A stretch of 64,000 nucleotides of DNA from a virus (IMGVR_UViG_3300035703_000038:1-64000); one strand, 5' to 3'; counted from the first letter of the stretch, positions 21,108 to 61,095 are shown. Program-made: numbers and translations. Notes: generated from the sequence alone by a model not told the origin.

Positions 21108-22763
21108 ATGTCTAAGATTACTGATGGTAGATCACAATTTAGTTCAATGACATGGTTCATTGGTGTTGTCGAAGATGTTAATGATCCTCTACTGATCAAT
21201 AGAGTCAGAGTTCGTTGCATTGGCTATCATCCTAAGGATAAAGCCCTACTCCCTACTGACAAATTGCCATGGGCTCCATTCATCTCATCTACAGCTATAA
21301 TGTCAGCTCCAATGGTCAACCAGGGCGATTGGGTTGTTGGCTTCTTTATTGATGGAGTCTTGGCTCAGCAGCCTGTTGTCATTGGATCATATATTAGTAT
21401 TCCAGAAACGCAAGCAAATGTTAATGATGGGTTTAATGATCCATCTGGCATCCATCCAAGACTGATTGGCGAAGGGACAAACTCTAGACATGCAAGAGGT
21501 GAAGAAGGCACGCCAGATAGAAATGCTGTAGCCTATACTAAGTCTTCTGCAACTGCAGCTGTACCAGTTGCAGATGGTACAAAGTTTACTGAACCACTCT
21601 CGCAGTTTGATGCAAGGTATCCGTATAACCATGTTCTGGAAACAGACCGTGGCCATGTGTTTGAGTTAGATGATACACCTGATGCAGAAAGAATCCAAGT
21701 GTTCCATAGGAAGGGATCATTTGTTGAATTCCATCCAGATGGCACTGTGGTTCATAGAGCAGTCAATAACAAATATCAGATTACATTAGAAGCAGATAAC
21801 ACATATGTTGGTAGCAACATGAATATGTCTGTTGTTGGCTCTGTTAATATTATTGCTGGTGCAAACACTAACATCTCAACAGTAGGAGATGCCAACTGGA
21901 GAGTTGGCGGTAATATGAACATTGATGTTGGTGGTAACTTCAATGTGGCAGTTGCTGGTGACACTAACATCGATACAGGTGGCACGACGATTGTATACTC
22001 TGAGAATAATGTCGAACTACAAGGCAACCAGGTCCACTTCAATAAGCCAACACCTAAACCACTTGGTGCTGTAAAGGAACCAGAGCTAATTGCTAAATCA
22101 TCTGGTGGTCCAACTGTATTTGAGATTCTGGCTACAGAGGATGATGTTGAGAAGTCTCTGGATGATCTCAATAAGATCAGAACTGATGCTGGCTTACCAC
22201 CAGCAAACAATGCTGTCAAGGAAGGCCAATCATCTACACCAGATGCAGGTGGTACAAATAAAGACATTAAGTGTGGCTCCGTCCAACTAAAAGATGATTA
22301 TAAGCAAGTTAAGATTTCAAAGAACTTCACATTAGCTGATATGACCCAGGGTGGTTCAAGAAAGCTCAAAGCTGCTGGTGGAGTCAAGGAAGAGGACATT
22401 CTATGTAACCTAGTTAAGTTAGCAGAAAATATTCTTGAGCCACTTAAAGCAGCCGGTTTCAAATTTACTATTACATCAGCCTATAGACAGGGTTCTGGCA
22501 AATCAGATCACGATGTTGGTAGAGCTGTAGATATTAAGGTCCATGGTTTAACCAACTTCCAGGCAGCTGAAAAGGTATATGCTGTCGTTGGTGCAATATC
22601 AAAGCAATTTCTTTTAGAGTATACAACAAATGGTGGTTCTGGTTGGATTCACATTGCCTATAATGGTGGCTCTAAGAGCGCTCTACCAATGGCTACATTC
22701 AACAACCATAGCACCTACGCAAGAAACAAGTTTGTAGACCTCAAGCCATCGGCGGTAGCATAA
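21108..22763 (+). CDS. gp5: baseplate spike gp5 with C-terminal M15-type peptidase domain
   Basis: OB-fold WF.GVVED..DP...RVRVR; YPYNHV..T..GH..E.DDTP..ERI; beta-helix repeats; C-terminal ISKNFTL...TSAYR...SDH..GRAVD...WIHI. Confidence 0.92.
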   Translation: MSKITDGRSQFSSMTWFIGVVEDVNDPLLINRVRVRCIGYHPKDKALLPTDKLPWAPFISSTAIMSAPMVNQGDWVVGFFIDGVLAQQPVVIGSYISIPETQANVNDGFNDPSGIHPRLIGEGTNSRHARGEEGTPDRNAVAYTKSSATAAVPVADGTKFTEPLSQFDARYPYNHVLETDRGHVFELDDTPDAERIQVFHRKGSFVEFHPDGTVVHRAVNNKYQITLEADNTYVGSNMNMSVVGSVNIIAGANTNISTVGDANWRVGGNMNIDVGGNFNVAVAGDTNIDTGGTTIVYSENNVELQGNQVHFNKPTPKPLGAVKEPELIAKSSGGPTVFEILATEDDVEKSLDDLNKIRTDAGLPPANNAVKEGQSSTPDAGGTNKDIKCGSVQLKDDYKQVKISKNFTLADMTQGGSRKLKAAGGVKEEDILCNLVKLAENILEPLKAAGFKFTITSAYRQGSGKSDHDVGRAVDIKVHGLTNFQAAEKVYAVVGAISKQFLLEYTTNGGSGWIHIAYNGGSKSALPMATFNNHSTYARNKFVDLKPSAVA

Positions 22764-23540: not shown

Positions 23541-25340
23541 ATGGCTAATGGATTCCTTACAACATCGGAACTAGATTTCCAAAACTACAAATCAAGCCTA
23601 AAAACATTCCTATCTCAGCAGGATGTGTTTAAGGATTACGATTTTGAAGGATCTAACATGGCTGTGTTGCTGGATCTGCTAGCATATAACACCTACATGA
23701 ATGGTGTCTACCTAAACATGGTAGGCAGTGAAATGTTCTTAGACACTTCTCAACTACGCGAATCAATCGTTTCTCATGCTAAAGAGTTAAACTATACACC
23801 ACGTTCTAGAACAGCTGCTACTGCATTTGTTGATATTACAATTACACCATCTGATGCACCTGATTCAATTACAATTCCAAAGTACTACGAGTTGAATGGT
23901 AGAACAGAAGATAACACAACCTACTACTTTACAACTGACGAAGCTGTAGTTATTAGAGCAAACAATGGTGTGTATAAGGCTGCCAATGTTGCTGTATACG
24001 AAGGTAACATTGTAAGAGAAGTATTTGTTGCCAATGCATCAACTCGCTATCTATTACAATCAGCCAATGTTGATATTCAATCAGTAGATGTCACTGTTAA
24101 GGATTCAGCTGCTGCTACAGAAGAAGTCAAGTGGAATAGAGAGACATTCTTGTTTGGATTAGATAACACAGATAATGTGTACTTCATCCAAGGTGCAGAA
24201 GACCACTTGTTTGAGCTTGTATTTGGTAACGGTGATATTGGTAAGTCGTTGGTGGATGGCAATGTTGTTACTGTCAACTATAGAGAAACAAATGGTTTAG
24301 ATGCCAATGGTGTTGAGACATTTACAGCACCTAATGCAATTCAAGGCTATACAAATATTTCTATTGCTACAGTTGTAGCAGCTGCATCAGGCTCCGAACA
24401 TGAGACGGATGAAGAAATCAAATTTAATGCTCCTAGATACTTCCCAACACAAAATAGAGCTGTAACAGTTGAGGATTATATTGCGTTAACAAAGCAAGCA
24501 TTCCCATCTCTAGAAGTTGTTACAGCATATGGTGGTGATGAGGTAGAGCCAAAGCAGTACGGTAAAGTTATCGTTGCTGCTAAGCCAGTTGGTGGCACGA
24601 AGCTCTCTACACCTCTAAAGACTCAGATGTACAACTATCTGAAAGAGAGATCATCTATCTCTATTGACCCAGTTATTGTGGATCCAGAGTACTTCTTTGC
24701 AGAAGTTGTTACTGAAGTTCTATACAATATTAACCTAACAGCGAGATCAGCAAGAGATATCCAGGCTCTTGTGGAAGAAACTATTGCCACATGGGGTAAT
24801 GATAATCTTGAGAAGTTTGGTTCCGATCTAAGATACTCAAAGCTAGTTAGAGCAATCGATGATTGCGAAGATGCTATCATTAGTAATAACACTGAATTGA
24901 GATTGTTCAAACTAATTGAAGTCGATACAGGCATCCCATTCAGAATTTCTCTATCATTTGAAAATGAGCTGAAGCAAGAAATATCCTCGACAAGAAAGAT
25001 TTACGAAGATACAACATCAACAATTGAAACATCACTGTTTACATACAACTTAAACAATGTAGATTATCTTGCCAAGATTAAGGATGACACACAGGGTAAC
25101 CTTGTCCTCGTATCAACTGTTAATGGCCAGGTTCAATTGTTGAAGGATAAGATTGGTACTATTAATTATTTGACTGGTGAACTATCAATTGGTGAGCTAG
25201 TATATGAGGATGTTGGTACCAATGGCGAGCTTGAAATCTACGCAAGAACAAAAAAGCTTGACCTAGAAACAAAAGCCAATAAGATTCTACAAATTGATTC
25301 TGCTCGTCTTGTTGTTACTGTAAATGGTATTAGAGAGTAA
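23541..25340 (+). CDS. gp6: baseplate wedge subunit (gp6)
   Basis: LDF...K..L..FL..Q..F.DYDFEGS....LLD.LAYNT; QNRAVT..DY. Confidence 0.95.
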   Translation: MANGFLTTSELDFQNYKSSLKTFLSQQDVFKDYDFEGSNMAVLLDLLAYNTYMNGVYLNMVGSEMFLDTSQLRESIVSHAKELNYTPRSRTAATAFVDITITPSDAPDSITIPKYYELNGRTEDNTTYYFTTDEAVVIRANNGVYKAANVAVYEGNIVREVFVANASTRYLLQSANVDIQSVDVTVKDSAAATEEVKWNRETFLFGLDNTDNVYFIQGAEDHLFELVFGNGDIGKSLVDGNVVTVNYRETNGLDANGVETFTAPNAIQGYTNISIATVVAAASGSEHETDEEIKFNAPRYFPTQNRAVTVEDYIALTKQAFPSLEVVTAYGGDEVEPKQYGKVIVAAKPVGGTKLSTPLKTQMYNYLKERSSISIDPVIVDPEYFFAEVVTEVLYNINLTARSARDIQALVEETIATWGNDNLEKFGSDLRYSKLVRAIDDCEDAIISNNTELRLFKLIEVDTGIPFRISLSFENELKQEISSTRKIYEDTTSTIETSLFTYNLNNVDYLAKIKDDTQGNLVLVSTVNGQVQLLKDKIGTINYLTGELSIGELVYEDVGTNGELEIYARTKKLDLETKANKILQIDSARLVVTVNGIRE

Positions 25341-27334
25341 TGAGACAACTAGAAAGTTACATTTCACCATTTATTGCTGATCAGTTTCCTTCAATCTATA
25401 AGGAAGAAGGTCCTCTATTCATTGCTTTCGTCAAGGCATACTTTGAGTGGCTAGAATCAAATGGTCAAGTTGTAAATGATTCAAGACGCTTGCTCGAATA
25501 TAGAGATATTGATAAGACAGTAGATGAATTTGTCAACCAATTTAAAAAGAAGTATATGTTCCCTATCCCAGAAGATATTGCTGGTGATAAGAGACTACTA
25601 CAGAAGCACATCAAAGAAGTATACGGATCAAAGGGTACAGAACGTGGCTTGAAGCTTCTGTTCCAGCTACTGTTTGGTGATTCAATCAGTGTCTATAGAC
25701 CTGGCGATGATGTTTTCAGATTATCAGATGGTGATTGGAGTAGAGACATCTACCTCGAGGTTGCCTATAAGCCATTCAATTCACTATTTGTTGGTGAGTT
25801 TATCAGAGGACGTATCTCTGGTGCCCGTGCCTATGTTGCAAGCTTCCAGACAAAATATGTTAATAATAAAAACATTAACATCTTCTATTTAACTGATGTT
25901 CAAGGCAACTTCCTATACGATGAAGTAGTTCTTATTGATGAAAATAGATTGGCACCAGGCGTTGCCCCAGCTGTATCTGCTGTCAACTCACCAAAAATTA
26001 TTGGCTCACTAACAGAAGTAGATGTAACAAATAGATCATCTCCATTTGGATACACAGTTGGTGAACAACTTGAAGTCCAAGGCTCAGGCAAAGGTGGTAA
26101 GGTTGTTGTTACGAGTTTGCAAGAGCTAGATGGTACTGTATCATTTTTCCTAAAGGATGGTGGTTCAGGTTATACAGTCAACACAACAGTATTCACAATA
26201 TTTGGTCCAGTCACAGGTGTTGTGGTAGAGGCTGGTGGCTCAGGATACGCAAATTCTGACTACCTAATATTTTCTAATGGCACATCACTTGGATATGCCA
26301 ATCTTGTAACGAATAGCTCTGGTGGTATTCTCAATAATACTGCAACTGGCCAGACATACTTCTCAGTCACCAATGGTGGTAACGGATTCCAAACAGCACA
26401 GACATCCGTTGTAGTTACCATTGCCAACTCAACTGGTGGTGTATCAGGTGGTGTTGGTGCCAATCTAGTACCTACAATTGCTGGTGGTGGCGATGGCGCT
26501 GCTCTGAGAATTGGTGGGCTATCAGATCTTAAAAGTATATTTGGTTCCATTGTAAAAATTAATGCTATTGGTCAAACTACAACATATCTTCCTACAGCAA
26601 ACAGTTATGATGATATGGTTATTGGTACACCATCCTACCCAACAGGCACAGGCTATGGTTTGTCATCCAACGTTGCTGCTGGCTTTGATACAATCTTGGC
26701 CGATGCATTGGATTACAAAATCTACGAAGTTGGCACAATATCTAAAATCTTTACTGTCAATCCAGGTTCTGATTATACAACAAACTTGACTGTTACTGCT
26801 GTGGATACATTAATTAGTCAGTTTAAATTTTCCGACCAAGAACATCCTGCCGGTAGAGGACCAACTGGTAGTGGTAGACTTGGTAATAATGCCATCGTTA
26901 CGGCTGTTACAGGATTTGGTTCAGATGCACTTGGTTCTGTTAAAGTAATTGACTCAGGCTTAGGTTATGAGCAAAATGAAGAAGTAACTCTTGTATCTCT
27001 TTCAAATACAAACCTTGTTACCTCTGGTACAGCTCTACTTTCAAAGCAGGGTCAAGGTCAAGGTGAGTTCAAATCAACAAGAGGGTTTTTGAGCTCAGAT
27101 AAGTACATACATGACAGTTTTTATTATCAAGACTATTCGTACGAAGTTAGATCGTCAATTGTGTTTAATAAGTACAGTGATCTGTTAAGAAAATTATGGC
27201 ATCCAGCAGGTGTAGAGAAATTTGGTCGCGTGTTGGTAAGTAGTGAAGTAACAGTTGCCACTCCAGATATCAATACACAAGGATATGTTGGTGATGGTAG
27301 CACAACAACGTTTGGCATTCCTGGTGGGGCATGA
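25340..27334 (+). CDS. gp7: baseplate wedge initiator (gp7-like)
   Basis: QFP.......P.F..F..AY..W; Y.SKGT...L..LF; DS.YYQDYSY; HPAG...FG; follows gp6. Confidence 0.8.
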   Translation: MRQLESYISPFIADQFPSIYKEEGPLFIAFVKAYFEWLESNGQVVNDSRRLLEYRDIDKTVDEFVNQFKKKYMFPIPEDIAGDKRLLQKHIKEVYGSKGTERGLKLLFQLLFGDSISVYRPGDDVFRLSDGDWSRDIYLEVAYKPFNSLFVGEFIRGRISGARAYVASFQTKYVNNKNINIFYLTDVQGNFLYDEVVLIDENRLAPGVAPAVSAVNSPKIIGSLTEVDVTNRSSPFGYTVGEQLEVQGSGKGGKVVVTSLQELDGTVSFFLKDGGSGYTVNTTVFTIFGPVTGVVVEAGGSGYANSDYLIFSNGTSLGYANLVTNSSGGILNNTATGQTYFSVTNGGNGFQTAQTSVVVTIANSTGGVSGGVGANLVPTIAGGGDGAALRIGGLSDLKSIFGSIVKINAIGQTTTYLPTANSYDDMVIGTPSYPTGTGYGLSSNVAAGFDTILADALDYKIYEVGTISKIFTVNPGSDYTTNLTVTAVDTLISQFKFSDQEHPAGRGPTGSGRLGNNAIVTAVTGFGSDALGSVKVIDSGLGYEQNEEVTLVSLSNTNLVTSGTALLSKQGQGQGEFKSTRGFLSSDKYIHDSFYYQDYSYEVRSSIVFNKYSDLLRKLWHPAGVEKFGRVLVSSEVTVATPDINTQGYVGDGSTTTFGIPGGA

Positions 27335-30300
27335 GCAATATAACGGTTAAAGTAAATGGAGTACTTCAGGTGCTTGGCACCGATTACACCATTTCTGGTA
27401 ACAATGTTGTATTTACGACAGCACCCGCTGCCAATAGTAAAATTGAAATTCGTAAAGAAGCAGAAAGAACTGCAATTGAAACAAGCTTCAAGATCCAGCA
27501 GGTATTCTTAACTCAGCTTGTAACTTCCTATGCAACAGAAACAACTGTTACAACTACATTTGCTACAGCAACTGGCCAGGTCACACTCACAGCTTATGTT
27601 ACTGATGTAGATACATCTAGAACAACCAACTCAGTATTTGGCACTAGCAAATCAACATCAACTAGCTACCCAACAGTATTTAATACTGCATATGGAACAA
27701 CAAAGAACACAGCTTCTCAGTATGTAACGGCTTACGAATCTGGATTCCAAACAGTGACTGTATTTGATACAGATATCAATACGGCTGTTGACACAACAAG
27801 AACAACCAATACAACATTCCCAACCTCTTTGGCTACTGCCACATCACAATCAACAGTTACGGTTGTTAACTTTAACACAACATACAGTACAGACCAGACA
27901 ACAACCACTGCATTTGAGACAGCTTATAGCACGGTATTTAATACAACAACTGCATACGAAACAAATAGAACAACTGTCTTTGATACAAACCTATTAACAG
28001 CAACATCTAGACAGACAGATACATCTAAGCAAACATCTAGCGTATATGACACTACATATTCGTCTTTCTATGCTACAAGTACTACATTTGACACAGTTAT
28101 CAATACAGCTGTCAACACATCCAAGTCAACAGATACAAGCCAGGCTACAAGTAAGTCAACAAATACGACTACAACATTTGTAACTATTTTTGAAACAGCT
28201 GGCTCAACATCAAGAAACACAGCCACTGTATATGACACAGTGTTTGATACAAACAGGTTGACTGGTACAACAATCAATACAACATTTGATACTATTATTG
28301 GCACAAGTAAGGCCACAAGCACATCTAAATCAACAACATCTGTATTCAACACATCAACAACATTTGATACAGTGTTTGATACTGGCTATGATACATCCAA
28401 GTCAACTACATCAGTATTCAATACAACAACGTCATTCAATACTGTATTTGAAACAAACTTTGGCACTACGACTGCTTTTGATACAAACAGAGCTACAGAC
28501 ACATCAAAAAATACTGCTACTAGTAAAAGTACAACAACAGCCTTCAATACAATTACATCTTATGATGTAACTACAACATTTGTTACTGCCTATAATGCTG
28601 CAACTGTTTATATTACGACACAGGGTGCTGACACTGCTAGATCAACAAGCAGAATAACAGATACAAATAGATCCACAACAACTGCTTTTGATACTACAAC
28701 AACTTATGGTACAACATTCTATTTTATTACCAGCAAGCAGACAGATACTAGCAGGCAAACAGATACAAGCAAGAGCACATCAACTGTATTCAATACTATA
28801 ACAGCATACGATACGTTAGTTGCAACTGCTGTTACTAAGAGTACTACAACATCTTTCAATACAATAACAACGTTCAATACAACGTATGATTCCACATACA
28901 ACACAACTTATTCAACAGACTCAGGAACTACACAGCAGACAGACACATACAATAGTGGATCTGGTAACGTAACTGCTCCAGCTGGTGCCACATCCGTAAC
29001 TATCAAGGTTTGGGGTGGCGGTGGTGGCGGTGGCTGTGGTGAAACGCGTAGTGCCGGCGATCTTGGCGGCGGTGGTGGTGGCTCAGGTGCCTATGTTGAG
29101 AAGACAGTTTCTGTAACTGGTGGCTCAACATCATTTTCATATTCTGTTGGTTTAGGTGGTGGTGGATTTGGTAACCCTCCAGGTGCCAATGATGACGATT
29201 CGTTTGCAACAGGTGATGCTGGTGGACAGTCAACTGTAACTGGTACTGGCGTCAACATGGTTGCTCCAGCAGGTAATGGTGGCCAGTGTGCTTATTATGA
29301 TTCATTTGGTGATATTGTAACTGGCGGTGTAGGTGGATTTGGTGGCTTTGGCGCTAGTGGCGGTGATACAAACACGGATGGTAATGCAGGTAACCAGGGT
29401 GGTATAAACTTTGGTGGCCAAGGTGGTAGTGCTCCAAGTGGTGGCACTGGTGGTGCTGGTGGTACAGGTACTGGTGATGGTTCAACTGGTGGCGCTCCAG
29501 GTGCCGGTGGTGGCGGTGGCGGTGAGAATGATGGTAGTGGTGGTAATGGTGCTGATGGTCGCGTTGAGTTTGTTTGGACTATCTCCACAACAACAATCAC
29601 AACAAGATCAACAAGTGTATCGACATCAAAGTCTACAACACTATCAACTGGCACATCTGCATCTACAACAACTGCTTATAGTGTTGACACAGCCTACCCA
29701 ACAAGTAGAACAACATCCACATCTAAGTCAACAACTACTGTATTCCAGACCGCAACTACATTCCAGACAATAACATCATTCAATACTGGTCTTGGTGGTA
29801 CAACAAGCAGGGCTACTGGCACAAGCAGATCAACAGTATCTGTATTCCAGACAACATCGACATATGATACCTCATATGGTACTACATTCTACTTCAACAC
29901 GAGTAAGGGCACCACATTCTACTTTAATACAAGTAGAGCAACTACTGTAGCCCAAGCAACAGGTACAAGTAGAGGCACAACAACTGTATATGATACAAGC
30001 ACAATATTCCAAACATCCACTATATTTGGTACAAGTGCTGCAACCACAACAGTGTTTAATACAGCTAGAGGCACAAGTGCTGTAACAGCAACATCAAAAT
30101 TAACAACAACAGCCTATAATACTGTTGTTGCCACATCTCTTGCAACCAGCAGAACAACAGCAACATCTAAATCAACTACAACTGTATTTGATACTACAAC
30201 TGCATTTGACACAGCTTATGCTACAAGTAGATCAACTGTTAAGAATACAACAACTACATTTGAAACAAACATCAGCACAAATAAGCAGACAGCTACAACA

Positions 30301-33300
30301 TTTACTACAACATTTAATACTGCAGCTGCCACAGGTTTAGCAACATCAACAACTACAACCTATTCAACTGTTTATTCTACAACAACAACTTATAACACAG
30401 GTTACGATACTGCATTTGCAACAAATCGTAATACCGACACATCTGTAATTACAGTTAAATCGACAAGTAAACAAACAGCCTCTGTATTTCAGACTGCTAC
30501 CACATTTGATACAAGCACTGCATTTGAGACTTCTAGATCAACAGTATTTGACACTCTAATTGCTACTAGCACGTCGCGCGATACAGTTATTGGTACTGCT
30601 AGAAGCACACTATCAGCATTTGAAACAACTATTGGTACATCTTCAAATAAGTCAACAACAACTGTCTATAATACAACAACAATCTTTGACACATCAAGAC
30701 AGACAACATCTATATTTGTAACTGGCTATAACACTGCATACGCCACAAACAAGCTAACCAACACGAGTGTGTTCACTACAGGCGTAACAACAATAATTAC
30801 ATCTACGGCATTTGATACTGTGTATGAAACTAACAGAAACACAGCAAGAAACACCACAACTGCCTATGATACAAATTTTGACACAACAACTGCATTTGAA
30901 ACAGTTGTTGATGAATCTAGAAACACAGCCACTGTATTCAATACAAATACATCCTCATCTCTACAAAGAAATACAGATACAGCAATTCTGACTGAATATA
31001 GAATTCTTGCTACACAAACCGTGTATAGCTCAACATACCAGACATTCTATGAAACTATTGCTGGTGTGCTAACATCTGTTGATACAAATGTTACGACAAG
31101 TAAGGTAACAGATACTGCTTATGTTGCTCAGAATAGAAACACGTTACGTGACACAGCATATCAAACAACAAACCCTACTGTAGTTCAGACAAGCACTCTA
31201 GGTAACACAAGTGCCACTGTCATTTTTAACACGACATTTGTAACATATGACACAGCCTTTGCAACTAGCAAGTCAACTACGTCTGTATTCAGCACATCAT
31301 ATGAAACTGTAGCTGGTACATCCAAGTCAACATCGACTGTTTACGATAGTGTATTTGATACAACAAAACAAACAACAATTACGACAGATACAGCTTCACC
31401 AACATCTAGATTGACAGCTTATGGTACAGGCACAAGCAGAACAACAACATCCGCTTTCTCTACAGTCATAACAACGACATATGGAACAGGTTATAATACA
31501 TCTAAGACAACCGATTCTGTCTATGTGACAGCATTCTTAACTGTATCAACATTTCAAACATCACCTCTTACTTCAGTATCTACATTACTGTCTAAGACAA
31601 CAGAGACATCAACGTTCTTTGCTACATCACAAGCAACAGATAAGAATACACTAACAAGCAGATCAACAGTTTATGTAAGTGGTGTATCGACAACTTCTCG
31701 TACAACAGAGTTTGCTACAGCAACATCAATCAATACAAGCTATGATACAAGAAGAGGTACTGATACTACAACTCAATATGAAGGTACGACTGTATTTGCT
31801 ACTGTATATGATACAAATCTAAATGTTGGCACAACAAGAATAACAGATGTTGCTACCTCAACAGCATACAACACTGTTATTAATACAGCAAGAGATACAG
31901 AAGTTGCTACAAGTAAGAATACAACAACAGCATTTGATACTGATACAGCAATACAAACATCATTTGATACAACAATTGCTACACAGTCAAGTTCTAGCAC
32001 TGCCTATGCCACAAACATTAGTACAAGTAAGTCAACAAGCTCAGTATTTGATACAACTTATGAAGTCAATACATCAACTAGCAAGTCAACGACTACTGCT
32101 TATCAAACAATATTCCAAACATCTAGAAATACAAGCACTGCTTATCAAACACTATTCAATACAGTGTATAGGGATACTGCTCTAGATACTGATGTAACCA
32201 CAACTACCGCTAAGGCAACAACTGGTGTAACAGGCACATCCACTATATCTGCAACATCAAGGACAACGACATATATTACAGAAGCACTGACAGATACGAC
32301 GTATCTAATGTCGAGCTCATATGCCACATCTACTGTATTTGAAACAGTTGTAGGATCTTATTACTTGACAGTGTTTGATGGTACGACAACATACGACACC
32401 AACTCTGGTGCTGGTACAATGAAGTCTACTTCTAAAACAACCAGCCTATCAAGAGCTACATCAACATACTTTGAATCAGCTTATGTAACATTGTTCCAAT
32501 CAACAACAGTGTTTGCAACTGATATCACAACAACAGGTATTAAGTCAACAGCAAGCAGATACCAAACAGACCTAGGCCTAGGTACTCTAAGAGACACAAT
32601 TGTCTTTACAAATGTCTACACCTCAACAAGTAAGACAACTGCAACAGGTACTGGCTTCAATACAACAACGACATATGATACTGGTATCCAAGCTGTTACA
32701 GATGTGCTGACTGCCGAAACAAAGAATACATCATATGATACTCTAACAAGATATGATACAGTTATCAACACAACAACATCATATCTATCATCATACTCAA
32801 CAATTGTTGATACGTCAAGAACTACATTAACTTCGACTGCCTTTGATACTTCTAGGGCAACTGCAACCATCTTCCAGACTGACTCTGGTGCTGGTACATT
32901 GCGTAACACATCTTTAAGTACAACAACAGCATTTGAAACTGTGTTTGTAATTACTCAATCATCTAAGTCAACTACAACAACATTCAATACAATTTCAAGA
33001 TATGACACAGCTCTTGATACAGATGTTTCTACAGCTACAAGCAAATCGACAGTTAGTGCTTATACAAGATTTGAAGGTGGTAGAACAACATCAACCGTAT
33101 TCAATACAGGGTATGAAACATTACCATTAGCCATCACAGTTGTTGGTACAACAAGATCAACAGCAACAGTTATTGTTACTGCATACCAAACATCATCTGC
33201 TACAGCTTATGATACAACTAGAGCAACAAACAAAACAACAACTACTGCATTTGAAACAACATACGGTACCGGTATCTTAACGGCAAGAGACACTTATACG

Positions 33301-34158
33301 TCTACAACAACTTCAACTGCATTCTTAACAGAATCAGCAAGATTGACCAATACTGTTTATAAGAACACTGCATTTGATACAGATGTGACAACTGCCACAA
33401 TTACTCAATTTGCTACAGAAACATCAAGAAACACAGCTACTGTTATCTCAACTGATACAACAATATCTACAACAACGGCTGGTGGTGCTACAACATCAAC
33501 TTCGTTCCAAACTGCAACACTAACATCCACATCATTCTATACAACTACTATAACGATTTCTGACTTGTTAACATCTAAGACAACAACAACAGGCTATGAG
33601 ACATCTTCATATATTGATACAACAATAGCAACTGTTTACCAAACATTAACACAAGTAGCCACATTAATTAATACAGTTGGCGTAACTCAGTTTGACACAT
33701 CTAGAACGACAGATGTTGAAATTGACTTCTCTGTTAGAGCAACAAGCTTCCAAACATTGACAGTTGTAGATACGTCAACAGCCTATGTCACCGGTAGCAG
33801 AATCACTCAGCGTTCTACAACAACATTGAGAAATACTGATACAGTTGAATATGTTAGAGATACAACAAGAACATCTGATCCAAATACAGTATACCAGACT
33901 AGCACAGTGTTCCTAACAACTACAGGCTCTGGTCTAGATACAGATAAGGTAACATCAAGACAGACTGACACAGAAAGATCAACATCATTTGTAACGGCCT
34001 TTGATACAACTACAACTTACCAGACAGATTCTGGTGCTGGTACAATGAAGTCAACATCCAAGGCTACAGCAACATCCAGAGCAACTGACCAGCAAGTTCA
34101 GACAAGCTATGATACTGCTATTCAGACAACATATGAAACTGTTTATATAAATAATTAA
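27331..34158 (+). CDS. giant Thr-rich self-complementary fibre protein with an internal glycine-rich head (possibly a C-terminal extension of gp7)
   Basis: 2275-aa ORF built from T-x-[FY]-x, T-x-[KR]-x and T-x units; Gly-rich domain at residues ~530-752; located between gp7 and gp8. Confidence 0.85.
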   Translation: MSNITVKVNGVLQVLGTDYTISGNNVVFTTAPAANSKIEIRKEAERTAIETSFKIQQVFLTQLVTSYATETTVTTTFATATGQVTLTAYVTDVDTSRTTNSVFGTSKSTSTSYPTVFNTAYGTTKNTASQYVTAYESGFQTVTVFDTDINTAVDTTRTTNTTFPTSLATATSQSTVTVVNFNTTYSTDQTTTTAFETAYSTVFNTTTAYETNRTTVFDTNLLTATSRQTDTSKQTSSVYDTTYSSFYATSTTFDTVINTAVNTSKSTDTSQATSKSTNTTTTFVTIFETAGSTSRNTATVYDTVFDTNRLTGTTINTTFDTIIGTSKATSTSKSTTSVFNTSTTFDTVFDTGYDTSKSTTSVFNTTTSFNTVFETNFGTTTAFDTNRATDTSKNTATSKSTTTAFNTITSYDVTTTFVTAYNAATVYITTQGADTARSTSRITDTNRSTTTAFDTTTTYGTTFYFITSKQTDTSRQTDTSKSTSTVFNTITAYDTLVATAVTKSTTTSFNTITTFNTTYDSTYNTTYSTDSGTTQQTDTYNSGSGNVTAPAGATSVTIKVWGGGGGGGCGETRSAGDLGGGGGGSGAYVEKTVSVTGGSTSFSYSVGLGGGGFGNPPGANDDDSFATGDAGGQSTVTGTGVNMVAPAGNGGQCAYYDSFGDIVTGGVGGFGGFGASGGDTNTDGNAGNQGGINFGGQGGSAPSGGTGGAGGTGTGDGSTGGAPGAGGGGGGENDGSGGNGADGRVEFVWTISTTTITTRSTSVSTSKSTTLSTGTSASTTTAYSVDTAYPTSRTTSTSKSTTTVFQTATTFQTITSFNTGLGGTTSRATGTSRSTVSVFQTTSTYDTSYGTTFYFNTSKGTTFYFNTSRATTVAQATGTSRGTTTVYDTSTIFQTSTIFGTSAATTTVFNTARGTSAVTATSKLTTTAYNTVVATSLATSRTTATSKSTTTVFDTTTAFDTAYATSRSTVKNTTTTFETNISTNKQTATTFTTTFNTAAATGLATSTTTTYSTVYSTTTTYNTGYDTAFATNRNTDTSVITVKSTSKQTASVFQTATTFDTSTAFETSRSTVFDTLIATSTSRDTVIGTARSTLSAFETTIGTSSNKSTTTVYNTTTIFDTSRQTTSIFVTGYNTAYATNKLTNTSVFTTGVTTIITSTAFDTVYETNRNTARNTTTAYDTNFDTTTAFETVVDESRNTATVFNTNTSSSLQRNTDTAILTEYRILATQTVYSSTYQTFYETIAGVLTSVDTNVTTSKVTDTAYVAQNRNTLRDTAYQTTNPTVVQTSTLGNTSATVIFNTTFVTYDTAFATSKSTTSVFSTSYETVAGTSKSTSTVYDSVFDTTKQTTITTDTASPTSRLTAYGTGTSRTTTSAFSTVITTTYGTGYNTSKTTDSVYVTAFLTVSTFQTSPLTSVSTLLSKTTETSTFFATSQATDKNTLTSRSTVYVSGVSTTSRTTEFATATSINTSYDTRRGTDTTTQYEGTTVFATVYDTNLNVGTTRITDVATSTAYNTVINTARDTEVATSKNTTTAFDTDTAIQTSFDTTIATQSSSSTAYATNISTSKSTSSVFDTTYEVNTSTSKSTTTAYQTIFQTSRNTSTAYQTLFNTVYRDTALDTDVTTTTAKATTGVTGTSTISATSRTTTYITEALTDTTYLMSSSYATSTVFETVVGSYYLTVFDGTTTYDTNSGAGTMKSTSKTTSLSRATSTYFESAYVTLFQSTTVFATDITTTGIKSTASRYQTDLGLGTLRDTIVFTNVYTSTSKTTATGTGFNTTTTYDTGIQAVTDVLTAETKNTSYDTLTRYDTVINTTTSYLSSYSTIVDTSRTTLTSTAFDTSRATATIFQTDSGAGTLRNTSLSTTTAFETVFVITQSSKSTTTTFNTISRYDTALDTDVSTATSKSTVSAYTRFEGGRTTSTVFNTGYETLPLAITVVGTTRSTATVIVTAYQTSSATAYDTTRATNKTTTTAFETTYGTGILTARDTYTSTTTSTAFLTESARLTNTVYKNTAFDTDVTTATITQFATETSRNTATVISTDTTISTTTAGGATTSTSFQTATLTSTSFYTTTITISDLLTSKTTTTGYETSSYIDTTIATVYQTLTQVATLINTVGVTQFDTSRTTDVEIDFSVRATSFQTLTVVDTSTAYVTGSRITQRSTTTLRNTDTVEYVRDTTRTSDPNTVYQTSTVFLTTTGSGLDTDKVTSRQTDTERSTSFVTAFDTTTTYQTDSGAGTMKSTSKATATSRATDQQVQTSYDTAIQTTYETVYINN
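34146..34153 (+). promoter_or_regulatory. T4 late promoter
   Basis: TATAAATA upstream of gp8. Confidence 0.8.
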
Positions 34159-34180: not shown

Positions 34181-36229
34181 ATGTTAACAAGATTCAAGCG
34201 CAATATTGTTGATTGTTTTATAGGCTCAGTGAGTAATACGCTGAGCGTTGAGCTGTCTGGTACTGTAACTGTCAATAGCTCTTGCACAACTGTAACAGGC
34301 ACAGGAACCAATTTCACATCTGATTTTGGTCTAGAAGATAGAATCTATATTGGTTCGCAATCTAGACAAGTAGTTTCAATTGCCAACGATACATTAATGA
34401 CAGTTGGCACACCATTTAGTACAAATGCAGCAGCCAACGTTTACCAAAAGGGTAAATTAGATAATAATGGTTATTATGTTTTTGCAGCCAGACAATCACC
34501 ATATCTAAATGACGATGTTGCCGCAAATACAATTGATAATGATTATGAAGGACAAACATTCCTACATGATGAATTGATGTTTGGTAGGAAGATTACTGAT
34601 ACTGATGTTGTACCAGTAGTTTCAAAAAAGAGCTGGCAGTCAAATACAATCTATAGCATTTACGATGATAAAGATACATCATTAATAGAAAAGAATTTCT
34701 ATGTTATTACATTTGAAAATAAAGTATACAAATGTATCTACAATAACAATGGCTCATCTTCTATAATTGAGCCAAGCCACACGCAGACAGGATTCCCTCC
34801 AGCTGAATCGGATGGATATAGATGGTTATATCTTTACCAGATAACAAATGATCAGCTATTAACATTTGGCACGGATAATTACATTCCTGTATTTGAAAAT
34901 ACAGATGTTAAGAAAGCTGCCATTGATGGTTCTATTTTTAATATCGCTGTAGAAGCTAATGGTTCTGGTTATCCAGCACATAGTGGTGTTATTGGTACGA
35001 CAAGCAATACGCAAATTGTAAAAATTAGCGATAATGCATCAACAGCTAATGATTTCTTTAGCAACTGTGCTATTACAATTACTAACGATTCAACAAACTA
35101 TACGTATGTAAAGGAAATCAGAGATTATGTTTCCAATAATAGTGGTAAGTTTGTTGTTGTAAAAATTCCATTTGCTAATGGACAGATTGCTAACAATAAT
35201 CCATATTCGATTGCACCATATATTAAGATTGAATCAAAGACTGGTTCAAACTGCGTAGCATATGCTGTCATGCAGAATGTTTCAAATACAACATTTGTTG
35301 GTAGCATAGAGTCAGTTGAGATTCTAAGTCCAGGCAGAAATTATAGACAAGCCAATGTAACAGTACAGACATCTGTTGGCTTTGGTTCTGGCGGTGAGGT
35401 TAGAGCAATCATATCACCACCTGGTGGCCATGGGCATGATGTTAAGAATGAGCTATACTGCCAAGCCGTTGGTATTGGTGTTGAGTTCTCAAACTCAGCA
35501 TTGCTAAATTTCTCATCTGATGTAGAATTTAGAACAGTTGGTTTGATCAAGAACCCATTATCAGCTAACACATTAATAACACCAGATGGTGTGGTTAATC
35601 TTGTTGCTAACAGTTTAAATGTTACTGGTTCCCAAACTAAGTTCACCCAGCAAGTAAACATTGGCGATTATTTAATCTATGCAGATGAGGAGAAAGAAGT
35701 TGCTGACATTACTAGCGACACTGCTCTCACATTAAAATCACCATTCTCGTATACAGTAGTTGCTGAATCATACGACGTTAGAAAGAGATATTCAAACTCA
35801 TATTTCAATCAAACTGTGTATGTTACAGCATCCAACACTACACCAACTCTACTCCAGGTTGGAGAGTTTGTGGTTGGTTCAGATGGCGCTGGTGGCGGCT
35901 CTCAGTCGAGGGGTAAGGTTGCATTTGCCAACACTTCTAAGATAGTTCTAACAGGACTAAATAAGAGTGAGACTCGTGGCTCAGCCAATGCAAAGATATT
36001 TGTAAATGACACACTAGTTGAGGGTGTTGGGTATGATGTTACATCAACTGCAACACCATTCATCGCTGCGTCAGGAGCTAAATACTCTAAGGTAGCAGGA
36101 AATAACTACATCACAAGAATACCTGATGTCAAATTATATTCTGGTGAGATTCTATATGTTCAGAATCTACTACCAGTACAAAGATCAAATACAACTAATG
36201 AACAAATTAGATTGATTATTAAGTTCTAG
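34181..36229 (+). CDS. gp8: baseplate wedge subunit (gp8-like) with inserted beta repeats
   Basis: W.....Y..YD; NFYV......VYKC..N; DGY.W.YLY; PPGGHG; YSGEILY..N..PV.R....EQI.LII.F. Confidence 0.88.
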   Translation: MLTRFKRNIVDCFIGSVSNTLSVELSGTVTVNSSCTTVTGTGTNFTSDFGLEDRIYIGSQSRQVVSIANDTLMTVGTPFSTNAAANVYQKGKLDNNGYYVFAARQSPYLNDDVAANTIDNDYEGQTFLHDELMFGRKITDTDVVPVVSKKSWQSNTIYSIYDDKDTSLIEKNFYVITFENKVYKCIYNNNGSSSIIEPSHTQTGFPPAESDGYRWLYLYQITNDQLLTFGTDNYIPVFENTDVKKAAIDGSIFNIAVEANGSGYPAHSGVIGTTSNTQIVKISDNASTANDFFSNCAITITNDSTNYTYVKEIRDYVSNNSGKFVVVKIPFANGQIANNNPYSIAPYIKIESKTGSNCVAYAVMQNVSNTTFVGSIESVEILSPGRNYRQANVTVQTSVGFGSGGEVRAIISPPGGHGHDVKNELYCQAVGIGVEFSNSALLNFSSDVEFRTVGLIKNPLSANTLITPDGVVNLVANSLNVTGSQTKFTQQVNIGDYLIYADEEKEVADITSDTALTLKSPFSYTVVAESYDVRKRYSNSYFNQTVYVTASNTTPTLLQVGEFVVGSDGAGGGSQSRGKVAFANTSKIVLTGLNKSETRGSANAKIFVNDTLVEGVGYDVTSTATPFIAASGAKYSKVAGNNYITRIPDVKLYSGEILYVQNLLPVQRSNTTNEQIRLIIKF

Positions 36230-43798: not shown

Positions 43799-44014
43799 AT
43801 GGAAAAAGAAATAGTTTATAGAGTGCAGGAAAATCCTGACTACATAAAGGATCAAACAACTGGTGCTATATTAAATACTAATGTAGCTAAGCTGAGAGAT
43901 TACAAGTTGAGAAAGAAACAAGGTCAAAAGATAGAAGACCTTCGAGAGGAAGTAGAGGAGCTAAAGAACCTGCTTAGACAGGTACTTGAGGAAAGAAAAT
44001 GGCAAAATCAATAA
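43799..44014 (+). CDS. small coiled-coil virion-associated protein
   Basis: KD..TGAI.N followed by a coiled coil. Confidence 0.75.
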   Translation: MEKEIVYRVQENPDYIKDQTTGAILNTNVAKLRDYKLRKKQGQKIEDLREEVEELKNLLRQVLEERKWQNQ

Positions 44015-45129
44015 ATTCAGTTGATGCAAATGCAGACTCGTTTGCTACGTGGGTAAACATTACCAACGAATTGGCAAATGCAGTTAGCACTGTGGTCTTG
44101 ACAGCCGGCAACTCTAGCGTCGAAGGTGTCACTGGATCCTCATCAAATAATCTTAACTCTAAGTTGTGGGGCCAGTTTGCGGCCAACACAATTCTAGTTG
44201 GCAACACAATTACATCAAATGTGACAGGTGCCAATGTTGCAATTGAAGCTAACCTAGAACTCAAGACAGCATATAAACTATACACAGTTGGTGATGTTAA
44301 TATTAAAGGCAACTTTGTTGTCGACACAGTAACAAAGATTAAGATTTCCGATAGAACATCACTACCAGGTAGTGGTACAACTGGTTGGTTAAAAGCAAAC
44401 ACAACAGGCTTTTTACAATTTGCCAACTTGGCAATCAAGGGCTCTGACTTTGATTCATCAGAGTTTATATGGACTGGTGCTATTGGTTATGCTAACTCAA
44501 CAAATTCACAATATGATGTTCTAGTATATGACACAGCATCTAGCGCCTGGTTAAGAACAAGATTGACACATTTAGTGACCCAAGAAATTGATACGCTGAC
44601 TCTTGGAACAGTAGTAGCTAATTCTTCTGGTGTTGTAACCCACAATGCTAATACAAGATTTGGTAATCCATCATCTCCATCTTTATTTGTATCTAACACA
44701 ACACAAAGAGTTGGTGTAGGTGGCATTACAGCACCAGCTGCAGCGCTACATGTAAATGGTGCCATCTACTCAACAGGTGATGTCACAACATTCTATACAT
44801 CAGATAAGAATTTGAAGAAGAATGTTGAAAGAATTCCAGATGCTCTAGAAAAGGTTCGCTGGCTAAATGGCGTCTCTTTTGAATGGGATCAGGAAAAGAT
44901 TGGTAATCTATCATTTGTTGGCCCAAAGCCTGACAAGGATATTGGTTTGATTGCCCAGGATGTCGAAAAGGTATTCCCTGAAGCTGTTATGTTAAGAGTT
45001 GATGGGTATAAGGCAGTTGATTATAGCAGGCTAGTACCTGTATTAATTGAGGCTATTAAGGAGCTCAGCTACAGATTAAATATCGTAGAAGCTGAGTTGG
45101 AAGACAAGTACCGCAGCAGTAGTAGGTAA
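43999..45129 (+). CDS. fibre protein with C-terminal intramolecular chaperone (peptidase S74)
   Basis: N-terminal DSF..W...TN; C-terminal SD..LK.N...I..AL.KV..L.GV.F.W, G.IAQDVE.VFPEAV, Y..L...LIEAIKEL. Confidence 0.85.
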   Translation: MAKSINSVDANADSFATWVNITNELANAVSTVVLTAGNSSVEGVTGSSSNNLNSKLWGQFAANTILVGNTITSNVTGANVAIEANLELKTAYKLYTVGDVNIKGNFVVDTVTKIKISDRTSLPGSGTTGWLKANTTGFLQFANLAIKGSDFDSSEFIWTGAIGYANSTNSQYDVLVYDTASSAWLRTRLTHLVTQEIDTLTLGTVVANSSGVVTHNANTRFGNPSSPSLFVSNTTQRVGVGGITAPAAALHVNGAIYSTGDVTTFYTSDKNLKKNVERIPDALEKVRWLNGVSFEWDQEKIGNLSFVGPKPDKDIGLIAQDVEKVFPEAVMLRVDGYKAVDYSRLVPVLIEAIKELSYRLNIVEAELEDKYRSSSR

Positions 45130-54862: not shown

Positions 54863-57800
54863 ATGGCAACAAAGTTTCAGATTAAAAGAACGTCTGTATC
54901 TGGACGTACGCCTAACACAACAAATTCTGCAAACTCATCTTATATTGCAGCAGGCGAGCTTGCCTTAAATTTAACTGATAAGAAGATGTATTCTTCTAAT
55001 GGTACCAATTATTTTGAGATTGGTGCTTTCAAAGTTGAACTAATTAATTCTACTTCAAATGTCTCCACATTCACTGAGATTTCAACACTCCAGTTTGATG
55101 AGGATAGTGGCTTTGATGTAACAAGCCCATCAGCTGGCGTCGCCAAAGTTGCGATGAATAGCACATTCAAGTACTGGCAGGTTGATGGCACAACAGAGCT
55201 TACAGCAACTGGATTAGATACTGTAAACTTCATTAGTGGTGATAATATTACTATCACTGCAAATGGTGCCAACACTCCTCAGTCAATTGCATTCTCGACA
55301 TCACTTACACCAACATTTACATCACTAACTGTCGGCAATAGTACTGTTAACACTGTCGTCAACTCTACGGCGATTGCTGTATCTAAGATCTTTGCCAATG
55401 GTGGTGTTGGTTCAAGTGGCCAGGTTCTAACATCCAATGGTACTGGTATCTATTGGGAAGATAGTACTGGTGCTGCATTTTCCGTATCAAGTGAAACATT
55501 TAATGCTAATGGCTCAAACACCCAGTTTACATTAGCACAGACAACAACATCACTTGAAACATTTGTGTTCTTAAATGGTGTTGCCCAAATACCAACAACA
55601 GATTATTCCATATCTGGTACAACTCTAACATTTGTAGTAGCACCATCAAATGGTGATGTTATTGAAGTTAGAACAATTAACATTCCTACTGTATCAGGTA
55701 TTACATTTACATTAGATAGTTTTACAGGTAATGGTAGCAATACAAACTACACATTATCTACAGCATTATCGTCTAACACAACTACGTTTGTTTATTTGAA
55801 TGGTGTCGCTCAAGTACCAACTACAGATTATGGTGTAAGTGGTTCAACGTTAACCTTTTTATCGGCACCGCCAAACTTGGAGCAGATTCGCGCATTAACT
55901 ATTAATCCAACTGGCGATTATGCATCTGATTCATTTACTGCAAATAGTACAGTTAATAATAATTTTACATTATCTATTCCAACAACAACATTTAGAACCT
56001 TAGTATTCATTAATGGTGTTGCCCAAGCTCCATCTATAGATTATATTGTAAGTGGATTGACATTATCATTAACAAATAATGCCGCCGCCAATGATGTTGT
56101 TCAGGTAAGATCATTTTATGAAGAACCAAGTGCTAGTGGTGCCAATACAACAATCCAATATAATGCATCAAGCAGACTAAAAGGTTCACTTGGATTTACA
56201 TTTAACGAAACAACAAATAATGTAACAATTGGTAACACACTAACTGTTCCAAACCTAAGAATTAATGCATCAAACCCTCCAGCAAATTCAACTTCAACCG
56301 GCTCTACTGGTACAGTTGCATGGGATAGTGATTATCTATATGTTGCAGTAGGAACAAATACTTGGAAGAAAACACCAATTACAACTGATGGTGCCGGTGG
56401 TGGTGGAGGCAGTGCCAACACAGCTGGTGCCAACACAGAAATCCAATTTAACGATAGTGGAGTACTTGGCGCTAATAATAAATTTACATTCAATAAAGAT
56501 ACATCAACACTAGCTGTTGGTTCAAATGTAACTGTTAACACAAGCACCATCTTTATTGGTAACAGCTCTGTTAATACTACAATCACTGCTGGTAATGTTC
56601 ATCTACAGGGCACCCAGCTAACAGTTGGTAATGTTGTATTAACTGGCGAACAAATTACTATTGGTAATAGTACAGTGAATACTGTATTTACAGCCAACTC
56701 ATTTGGCCTTGGTATGGCAAGACAGTCATTTGCTGGCAATGGTTCAAACACGCAGTTCACCCTGTCGGCAGAACCAACAAATGAAAGTCATACTCTTGTG
56801 TTTGTTGATAGAGTAATTCAAAGAGATTCTGATTATAACATTGCAGGTGCAGTACTAACATTTACATCAGCACCAGATAATGGATCTGATATTGACGTTT
56901 ATGTGGCACGTGCTGGTGTATCAGCAGGTCCAAGTGTTGGATATAGTGTAACAAGAAATGAATTCACTGGTAATGGTTCTAATACAAACTTCTCATTATC
57001 GGCAGCTCCGCAGTCTGAGTCCCATGTATTGGTATTTGTTGATGGTATGATTCAAAGGGATTCAGATTTTACTATATCTGGATCAACACTAATATTTGTG
57101 GCAGCACCAGATAATGGATCTGAGATTCAAACATTTGTATATCAGAGTGCAGTTGCTCTTGCTGGTGGCTCAAATACAAATATTGTATTTAACGACTCAA
57201 CAGCAGCTAATGGTTCAGCTGGCTTTACATTCAACAAAACAACAAATAATGTTACAATTAGCAACACATTAAGTGTTGGTAATAGTACCGTCAACACAAC
57301 CATACGTCCTAATGGTGCAACATTCAGTGGTGATCTAATGCCATCTGCTAATGTTACCTATGATATTGGTAACTCATCAATGAGATGGAAAGATTTGTGG
57401 TTATCTGGTTCAACAATCAATCTTGGTGGTGCTTCCATTAAGACTGACACTGATACTGGTGCCATTGCTCTCATCCCAAAGCCAACTGTTGCTAATCCAG
57501 ATCCAGTTGCTATGGTCGTATCACCAACCGGTGGTATTACATCTGTACCAACAACAGGGGGTGTTCCGGCAGCAAATGCTGTTGCTGAGGCTGCAGAGTC
57601 TAATACAGCATCTCCTGTTCCAATTGATATCACGTCCACAGCACCAGCAAATGGTCAGGCTCTAATTTGGAGTTCGTCTGCTAATACATTTGTTCCTGGT
57701 AATGTTGCAGCAGGCGGTGCTTCATCCGATATTCCAAAGATTACTGGTCTTGTATATCCTAGTGATGATACTGCTGCCAACACATCTGGCGGTCAGACAG

Positions 57801-60184: not shown

Positions 60185-61095
60185 CTGAAATATGGCTCGT
60201 AAGTTTCCAGGTAGAGCATTTGATCCTAACTCATCAATAACAGTCACATCGATTGTAGTTGGTGGCGCTTCGATCCAAACAGATAGTAACACTGGTGCTA
60301 TTGCTCTAATACCTAAGCCAACAGATTCCAACCCCAATCCAGTTGCAGCAGTCGTCGCTCCAACCGGTGGTATCACTACCGTTAACACAACAGCAGGTGT
60401 TGCTGCCACAAATGCTATTGGTGCTGCGGCAGCTGCCAATACAGCATCTCCAGTTGCTATTGATATAGCAACATCTGCTCCTGCAAATGGTCAAGCTTTA
60501 GTCTGGAATGCATCTGCTAGTAAGTTTGTTCCCGGCAACGTTGCAAGTGGTGGATCTGATATACCAAAGATTACTGGTCTTGTATATCCAGACGATGATA
60601 CTGCAGCTAACACCTCAGGTGGCCAAACAATTTACATAACGGGCAATAACTTTGTAAGTAATTGCAAAGTTTACATTAATAATACACTAGCACCATCCAT
60701 AACATTTGTCGGCTCTAGCAATGTTGGATTTACAACACCTGCCTTATCTGTTAACACATATCCATTGTATCTTGTAAATCCAGATGGTGGTACTGCAGTG
60801 TTTATTCCAGGCTTGGATGTGTCGTCTTTACCTACATGGGTAACAAGCTCAGAACTTACTAGTTTTGGTGCCTCTGCTACAATTACCCGTACACTTGAGG
60901 CAACTAGTGATTCAACGGTTACATATTCACTAGCTGGTGGCAGCAGCTTACCGTCTGGTTTAACATTAGCATCTAATGGTGTATTGAGTGGAACATTAAC
61001 ATCCCCGCCGGCGTCTGCGACAACATATAATTTTAGTGTTGTGGCAACAGATGAAGAGATGCAAACAGCTACAAGAGCATTTAGTATTACAGCAA
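57425..61095 (+). repeat. diverged ~0.85-kb direct duplication (~57425-58270 vs ~60261-61095)
   Basis: GGASI.TD..TGAIALIPKPT...SDIPKITGLVYP.DDTAANTSGGQT...ATSDS.VTY.LAGGSSLP occurs in both genes; shared DNA includes ccaaagattactggtcttgtatatcc. Confidence 0.85.

Follow-up and report, generated by a model that had tools for sequence, protein, structure and literature searches.

A threonine-rich protein of a T4-like baseplate locus carries a gap-free mirror code best explained by an antiparallel beta ribbon

Stalks built as hairpins with an apical head are known from the streptococcal antigen I/II (an alpha helix plus a polyproline helix), from colicin Ia and from the antiparallel coiled coils of SMC/Rad50, while thin beta rods lacking a hydrophobic core are represented by the single-layer beta sheet of OspA and by the G5-E repeats of SasG/Aap. 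Among phage fibres, the needle or tip domain of gp37, a protein of the long tail fibre of T4, was reportedly described by Bartual et al. in 2010 (PDB 2XGF). Here we analyse P0001, a complete Thr-rich open reading frame (ORF) of 2275 amino acids (aa) located between gp7-like and gp8-like baseplate genes in a 64 000 nucleotide (nt) stretch of viral DNA (IMGVR_UViG_3300035703_000038:1-64000, hereafter the window), which belongs to a 101 kb IMG/VR virus record that is ∼56% complete. Thr accounts for 31% of the protein, and two of its segments, arm 1 and arm 2 of what we call hairpin 1, mirror each other around an inserted tip:

27331..34158, + strand: complete Thr-rich fibre ORF P0001, 2275 aa
27511..28917, + strand: arm 1 of hairpin 1, outward, residues 61-529 (best-scoring core 79-513)
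28918..29598, + strand: tip insert, residues 530-756, with a Gly_rich_2 match at 543-749
29599..31005, + strand: arm 2 of hairpin 1, returning, residues 757-1225 (core 773-1207), residue j standing opposite 1286-j

The helical stalks of antigen I/II, colicin Ia and SMC/Rad50 share with the structure proposed below a single out-and-back chain, in-register arms, an apical domain and arm lengths that co-vary, but they do not exceed ∼50 nm and follow heptad or polyproline II rules, whereas P0001 has a beta-type two-residue periodicity and would be about three times longer. OspA and SasG/Aap are likewise monomeric, elongated and of beta type, with both faces exposed to solvent and with Thr/Lys/aromatic cross-strand pairs; however, they consist of many short strands laid across the long axis or of small repeated domains, and they lack a sequence mirror. 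In T4 gp37 the chain also runs out to a receptor-binding tip and back, so that both ends of the domain lie together on a thin beta-structured rod, but three chains are intertwined, iron is coordinated by His, the length is ∼20 nm and there is no Thr-rich mirror code; no similarity to P0001 was found in the PDB sequence search. A preliminary description of this locus, made from the sequence alone, had set the protein apart from trimeric T4-type fibres, and this contrast holds for scale, strand number and code, whereas the out-and-back topology has a small trimeric precedent in gp37. The gp37 needle and its iron sites are mentioned in PMC6957217. We found no paper describing an equivalent structure, and the very long two-stranded beta stalk that the chain most likely forms would be of a hitherto undescribed kind.

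The mirror code of P0001

Without a single gap, residue i of P0001 stands opposite residue 1286-i, and over both arms Thr lies under Thr and Phe/Tyr under Lys/Arg. Fifty-three aromatic:Lys/Arg pairs fell on the anti-diagonal i+j=1286, as compared with 25 on the runner-up among ∼4500 anti-diagonals. Using a mirror score of +2 for Thr:Thr, −3 for Thr:non-Thr, +4 for aromatic:basic and −4 for basic:basic, the gapless local score reached 248 for 79-513 opposite 773-1207, while the maxima of 20 unit-shuffled proteins ranged from 25 to 49, and a gapped Smith-Waterman alignment recovered the same segment with zero gaps. When the arms were compared as 61-528 versus 757-1225, 126 Thr:Thr and 50 cation-pi pairs were counted at the true register and 86 and 22, respectively, at the next-best registers; the maxima of 2000 unit shuffles were 79 Thr:Thr and 18 cation-pi pairs (z = 20.7 and z = 30). 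The mirror is established as a phenomenon of the sequence and lies far above chance.

These results bear out the gap-free mirror of the preliminary description, whose anti-diagonal peak proved unique against the unit shuffles (248 versus a maximum of 49). Its hand count, according to which about 50 of some 52 Lys/Arg faced Phe/Tyr and none faced another Lys/Arg, agrees with the computed values of 50 of 54 arm Lys/Arg opposite Phe/Tyr and none opposite Lys/Arg. The two irregular 6-mers that it had placed opposite 6-mers were indeed found to oppose each other, at 461-466 and 820-825 and at 177-182 and 1104-1109, and the looser pairing it had noted beyond the dense arms was seen as well, as the pairing thins but continues to ∼529/757 towards the tip and to ∼51-65/1221-1235 towards the base.

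Across the 435 residues of the core, 113 Thr:Thr pairs fall on one residue parity and eight on the other, the parity never being broken. An unbroken single parity over this length is expected for an uninterrupted strand with a two-residue periodicity, and since the Thr:Thr and aromatic pairs share the same parity, they would occupy one face of such a strand. When Thr:Thr matches were counted in parallel orientation, offsets peaked at many even values (4, 10, 14, 18, 6, 22, 50 and others) with no dominant period, and at the DNA level short similar units of P0001 repeat diffusely at irregular spacings. No inverted repeat connects the DNA of the two arms; those that were detected number eight, are short (18-28 nt) and imperfect, and do not lie at mirror positions. 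A palindrome at the DNA level is ruled out as the source of the mirror by this lack of an arm-to-arm inverted repeat, and the mirror is thus present at the protein level only.

In all proteins tested (window 27565-30951 and the relatives described below), roughly half of the aromatic:basic pairs survived a register shift of +4, whereas a shift by −4 yielded aromatic:aromatic clashes. This asymmetry may reflect the grammar of the motifs or a second interface.

A second, shorter mirror follows the first and, together with the remainder of the protein, comprises:

31246..31674, + strand: outward arm of hairpin 2, residues 1306-1448 (gapless score 63 at i+j=2905)
31675..31698, + strand: turn of hairpin 2, eight residues, 1449-1456, with surroundings conserved in 14 sequences
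31699..32127, + strand: return arm of hairpin 2, residues 1457-1599
32128..34155, + strand: C-terminal third, residues 1600-2275, written in the same unit alphabet

Hairpin 2 consists of 143 gapless pairs (1306-1448 versus 1457-1599) around the 8-residue turn, and it recurs with its turn in the orthologues, being conserved over 14 sequences. In the C-terminal third (1600-2275) no long mirror rose above noise, short candidate hairpins with noise-level scores being all that was seen. A turn motif T-[DN]-S-G-A-G-T-[ML]-[KR] (SGAG-type) is repeated several times in 32128-34155.

Orthologues and fused gp7 relatives

Using the gp7-like neighbour and hairpin 2 as queries against IMG/VR and metagenome contigs, nine further full-length orthologues were obtained, ∼50% identical to P0001 and all placed between gp7 and gp8. 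Each of the nine has its own gapless mirror (scores 116-234). The arms of the ten proteins are 293, 408, 413, 427, 433, 435, 467, 473, 479 and 507 residues long, equal within each protein and free of gaps, despite the many indels that separate the proteins from one another. Alignments to P0001 revealed that indels in arm 1 are mirrored in arm 2: in the orthologue L014 a 32-residue deletion at 429 is matched by one of 32 residues at 831, and 10 residues at 362 are matched by 6 + 2 residues near 914 and 898. Taken together with the fused gp7 proteins described below, over 20 proteins have kept their arms equal, the indels occurring in pairs. The preliminary description had proposed to look for paired indels in homologues, and the outcome was in its favour, as the arms were equal in 10 orthologues and ∼12 fused gp7 relatives in spite of their differing lengths. 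As judged from these alignments, the register-specific antiparallel correspondence of the arms is kept by selection through indels and tip swaps.

Pooling of the Thr-face pairs over seven orthologues (n = 1514) gave 771 Thr:Thr, 358 aromatic:basic, 134 aromatic:aliphatic, 25 aromatic:aromatic and no basic:basic pairs. The opposite face carries small or polar residues with a weaker partner preference (aliphatic:small z = +5.2, small:small z = −4). Seven double changes linked Thr:Thr with an aromatic pair at the true register, as compared with 0-1 at shifted registers. In one relative (L121:1290-7436), an alternative register was noted 16 residues away, close to the tip.

The tip of P0001 matches Pfam Gly_rich_2 (PF21722) with 31.7 bits (cut-off 24.3) over positions 4-225 of the 226-position profile, and a six-frame search gave 43.1 bits. 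Its nearest Atlas neighbours are viral Gly_rich_2 proteins, the Gly-rich tip being the only part of P0001 that was recognized there. Among the orthologues the tip varies from 39 to 259 residues and the arms are nonetheless matched: three proteins have a Gly_rich_2 domain, others have inserts of 62-103 residues that are unrelated to it, and L003 has only 39 residues. Since the tips of orthologues can be unrelated or nearly absent, the stalk is the conserved invention rather than a device made for the head of P0001. The place of the head at the tip of the hairpin, as proposed in the preliminary description, is supported; the head is optional, however, as orthologues have an unrelated tip or almost none. 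Glycine-rich domains that are possibly analogous to Gly_rich_2 occur in T-even gp38 adhesins and in ALK/LTK. The domain of P0001 differs from such adhesin-type domains in being internal, at the apex of a hairpin, and missing in most orthologues, and its fold and receptor binding are putative. A search of the literature on PF21722 returned nothing relevant. Elsewhere in the window, ORF 60192-61949 (585 aa, 20% Gly) carries a TIG domain and a sub-threshold ALK/LTK glycine-rich match (expectation value (E) 4e-4); BLASTP detected no similarity between its Gly-rich C-terminus and the P0001 tip.

In the databases, the arms have gp7-like proteins (1250-1416 aa) as their sole relatives, the similarity being weak but significant (E 4e-13 to 1.7e-4, 31-40% identity, values that are softened by composition bias, as is the BLASTP E of 5e-25 to P0003, one of these proteins). 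Each of the proteins P0002-P0008, P0010, L026, L027, L030 and the gp7 of Stenotrophomonas phage DLP6 bears a mirror hairpin in its C-terminal half, with scores of 115-160 among the members of this fused gp7 family. The hairpins have arms of 180-485 residues and turns of ∼17-50 residues, with pairing that reaches the turn; those of P0002 and P0004 lie at 714-970 / 999-1255 and 716-972 / 1000-1256, respectively. Here, too, indels occupy mirrored positions (4 residues at 216/213, 10 at 203/223 and 4 at 136/140). In DLP6, where the gene order is gp6, gp7, gp8, the fused gp7 (AMQ65900.1, 1288 aa; L001:15777-19643) has its hairpin at 716-966 / 983-1233 with a score of 160, a feature on which the DLP6 paper (PMC5349666) is silent. 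The mirror is absent from the gp7-position proteins of phiM12, Cr30 and HTVC008M, no Pfam family covers the fused gp7 hairpins, and a fused-gp7 hairpin, used as query in a profile-free search, matched only four of 1.8 billion representatives.

The gp7 of DLP6 and its environmental relatives (P0002-P0011, L026, L027 and L030) have in common with P0001 the unit alphabet, the mirror code of Thr:Thr and aromatic:Lys/Arg pairs and the position in the baseplate module. They differ in that the hairpin is joined to the gp7 core behind a ∼125-residue domain, has a small turn and carries no head, whereas P0001 has an ORF of its own, in which part of a split anchor domain precedes two long hairpins, the first of them tipped by a Gly-rich head. 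The intervening domain (residues ∼580-705 in DLP6 and P0002-P0010) has conserved Trp/Gly/Tyr and no Pfam match. Two variants were noted within the family. The 1840-aa fused gp7 of L027 (L027:1486-7005) has arms of 485 residues and a tight turn, and many of its rungs are Phe:Phe in identical TFNT units instead of aromatic:basic. In L030 (L030:3214-5706) the register changes once, by 2 residues, between two gapless blocks (i+j 882 and 880), forming a natural bulge.

The baseplate locus and the junction with gp7

Pfam and PHROG matches revealed a T4-like gene order around P0001, namely gp6-like, gp7-like core, the P0001 ORF and gp8-like:

21108-22763: gp5-like hub
23541-25340: gp6-like wedge, baseplate module in T4-like order
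25340..27334, + strand: gp7-like baseplate wedge protein, N-terminal core only, 664 aa (PF23786, phrog_17744)
27331..27334, + strand: ATGA overlap of the gp7 stop TGA with the fibre start ATG (sequence reading)
27331..27465, + strand: N-terminal anchor part of the fibre, residues 1-45, second half of a domain split with gp7 (junction alignment)
34181-36229: gp8-like wedge

DLP6 is the closest cultured relative as judged by gp6 (47.6% identity). P0001 itself has no PF23786 or PHROG match, the gp7 core domain being located in the upstream ORF 25340-27334, and Pfam, PHROG and PDB sequence searches gave no match covering the arms, no fibre repeat or domain family outside the tip and no C-terminal chaperone or trimerization module. 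Searches of the phage collection with the locus DNA and with the P0001 protein gave no match, probably owing to the low-complexity filter. The window encodes no second protein of this Thr-rich composition and so offers no Thr-rich partner in trans.

A domain of ∼75 aa is split across the junction of gp7 and the fibre (window 27250-27465): its first strands are supplied by the ∼25 C-terminal residues of gp7, and its second half by the ∼45 N-terminal residues of the fibre. When joined, the two ends align over the junction to an intact domain that is repeated in tandem in ORF 54863-60184 (E 4e-9), and whose intact ∼75-aa copies there match Pfam Phage_T7_tail and DUF4183. ORF maps indicated the ATGA overlap at the orthologous loci as well, and no canonical slippery site was seen at the gp7/fibre overlap. 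The split domain suggests, on the basis of this alignment, that one fibre is joined to one gp7, either by strand complementation or as a fusion product of a −1 frameshift. In T4, gp7 is present in one copy per wedge. Together, the split domain, the fused relatives and this single gp7 per wedge argue for a single chain per fibre; attachment to gp7 would be 1:1, and the fibre would hence be a monomer present six times per baseplate.

Several conventional fibre genes lie downstream of P0001 in the window. Among the ORFs of the window, ORF 43999-45129, which is separate from P0001, has a Peptidase_S74 chaperone domain, and ORF 54863-60184 contains Laminin_G_3, TIG and T7-tail-fibre-like repeats. 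From these hallmarks, the phage possesses ordinary fibres besides the mirror-coded one.

A proposed two-stranded ribbon and its alternatives

The best explanation of the mirror, and in our judgement probably the right one, is that P0001 and its relatives form an in-register, intrachain, antiparallel two-stranded beta ribbon that is anchored on gp7 and bears an optional, swappable tip. P0001 would then be a baseplate fibre attached to gp7, in which the chain, after a small N-terminal anchor, would run outward for ∼450 residues, form the tip (Gly_rich_2 in P0001) and return in exact antiparallel register, to be followed by the second hairpin of 143 pairs. One face of the ribbon would be a continuous Thr:Thr ladder in which, at intervals of 4-10 residues, an aromatic residue intervenes, overlaid by a Lys/Arg or an aliphatic residue of the other strand, and the side chains of the other face would be small and polar. 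The irregular succession of units of 2 and 4 residues would strongly favour the right register over all others, in the manner of a zip with a barcode, and the tip would reach and bind the host. At ∼0.33 nm per pair, hairpin 1 would extend over ∼145-155 nm and hairpin 2 over ∼47 nm.

Direct cross-strand contact in such a ribbon is the simplest physical cause of the mirror. In an antiparallel pair a given face presents side chains from a single class of site, either hydrogen-bonded or non-hydrogen-bonded, and the segregation of the code to a single face fits this geometry. The short turns of hairpin 2 (8 residues) and of the fused gp7 proteins (∼17-50 residues) favour closure within one chain. 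Neither face resembles a buried core, which fits a solvent-exposed ribbon of the single-layer-sheet type without proving one. The fold-back that the preliminary description had proposed is upheld with respect to the antiparallel, in-register pairing of the arms, for which the shuffles, the paired indels and the double changes speak; that the ribbon would be free-standing, monomeric and ∼150 nm long goes a step further, and structure prediction by AlphaFold2 gave no confident model of it.

Several observations weigh against the ribbon or its free-standing form. AlphaFold2 applied to hairpin 2 alone as a single sequence gave a predicted local distance difference test score (pLDDT) of 31 and no strands, and with the 14-sequence alignment a pLDDT of 32 and an all-beta model, whose strands are roughly symmetric about the predicted turn but which is not trustworthy. 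To our knowledge, a free two-stranded ribbon of hundreds of residues is without precedent, and the well-studied phage fibres known to us are all trimers. In a free ribbon, neither edge would be satisfied and a semi-hydrophobic face would be exposed. The copy number of gp7 in this phage is an assumption based on T4. The pooled orthologue counts derive from related proteins and are not independent samples, and the orientation of the aromatic:basic pairs is almost never flipped among the orthologues. Of the compensatory changes that the preliminary description had anticipated, paired indels and the seven double changes at the true register only were found, whereas exchanges of F/Y for K/R on opposite arms are almost absent; covariation at the residue level is thus modest, and the indels constitute the chief evolutionary evidence.

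Given the trimeric nature of known phage fibres, in-register hairpins might form but associate in threes (or sixes) into a closed multi-stranded tube or bundle, comparable to the three out-and-back chains of the T4 gp37 needle, so that the fibre would be an oligomer. Burial within such a bundle would benefit the ribbon edges and the aromatic-bearing face, and the retention of about half of the aromatic:basic pairs at register +4 could mark a second, sheared interface, unless it is mere motif grammar. We consider this arrangement unlikely, because the relatives carry the hairpin within the gp7 chain itself, gp7 being present in one copy per wedge in T4, and because neither face would suit the lining of a narrow barrel, one bearing Phe/Tyr/Lys/Arg and the other Asp/Asn/Gln/Ser; nor does the P0001 ORF contain a trimerization or chaperone domain. 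It is also conceivable that the mirrored residues touch but that the ribbon follows a wound or folded course or lies against the baseplate or tail, with no 150 nm projection. A two-stranded ribbon of that length seems mechanically fragile, gp7 extensions could serve as a belt or brace, and the tip-less orthologues argue against presentation of a head as the sole role. The sequence, however, offers no regular turn signal or single period (Thr:Thr peaks at 4, 10, 14, 18 and so on) and its parity is never broken, and arms ranging from 293 to 507 residues among close relatives would be easily accommodated by a free stalk but hardly by a fit to a fixed scaffold, which renders such a wrapped form improbable.

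Pairing of arm 1 with arm 2 of another chain, as a domain-swapped antiparallel dimer or a chain of molecules, would produce the same mirror, which alone cannot separate intra- from interchain contacts when the tip insert is as large as in P0001 (259 residues). The 8-residue turn of hairpin 2, the ∼17-50-residue turns of the fused gp7 proteins with pairing up to the turn, and the mere 39 residues between the arms of the L003 orthologue make such swapping very improbable. That the mirror is structurally meaningless and simply results from low-complexity Thr-rich repeats or from a disordered linker of mucin type might be supposed from the 31% Thr and from the short similar units that repeat diffusely in the DNA; yet the unit shuffles never came near the observed score, a single register stands out, the arms remained equal through many indels in more than 20 proteins and there is no DNA palindrome, so that the chance of this being the case is negligible. 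A compositional artefact or disordered mucin-like linker is excluded by the shuffle and orthologue tests. A beta-solenoid was also considered. TxT antifreeze or ice-binding solenoids resemble P0001 in having Thr at alternate positions and a flat Thr-rich face, but they need a fixed coil length, whereas the unit order of P0001 is aperiodic and the partner of each Thr lies on the mirror strand hundreds of residues away. This candidate was rejected, as no constant coil length, no dominant Thr:Thr period and no regular spacing of DNA repeats were found.

The two-stranded intrachain ribbon can be drawn in its most specific form as a free-standing single chain of ∼450 pairs and ∼150 nm, six per baseplate, with a register set by the barcode, a pairing code and an evolution like that of RNA stems through compensated indels and tip swaps. 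To this complete picture we would give slightly less than an even chance.

If the ribbon is real, it would represent a novel construction principle for long protein fibres, based on a single self-zipped chain with a simple, readable pairing code instead of three wound chains, and it would explain how a long receptor-seeking fibre can be carried by a baseplate protein that is present once per wedge. It would likewise be a case of a protein that evolves by compensated indels as RNA stems do, an analogue of base-paired helices. The code, with its Thr ladder, aromatic-cation rungs and aperiodic unit order, offers a natural rule set for designing beta rods, rigid or addressable, whose length can be chosen and whose tip carries a cargo domain. 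For the phages themselves, it points to a putative, hitherto unannotated host-recognition module with swappable tips in a T4-like clade that includes the cultured therapeutic candidate DLP6.

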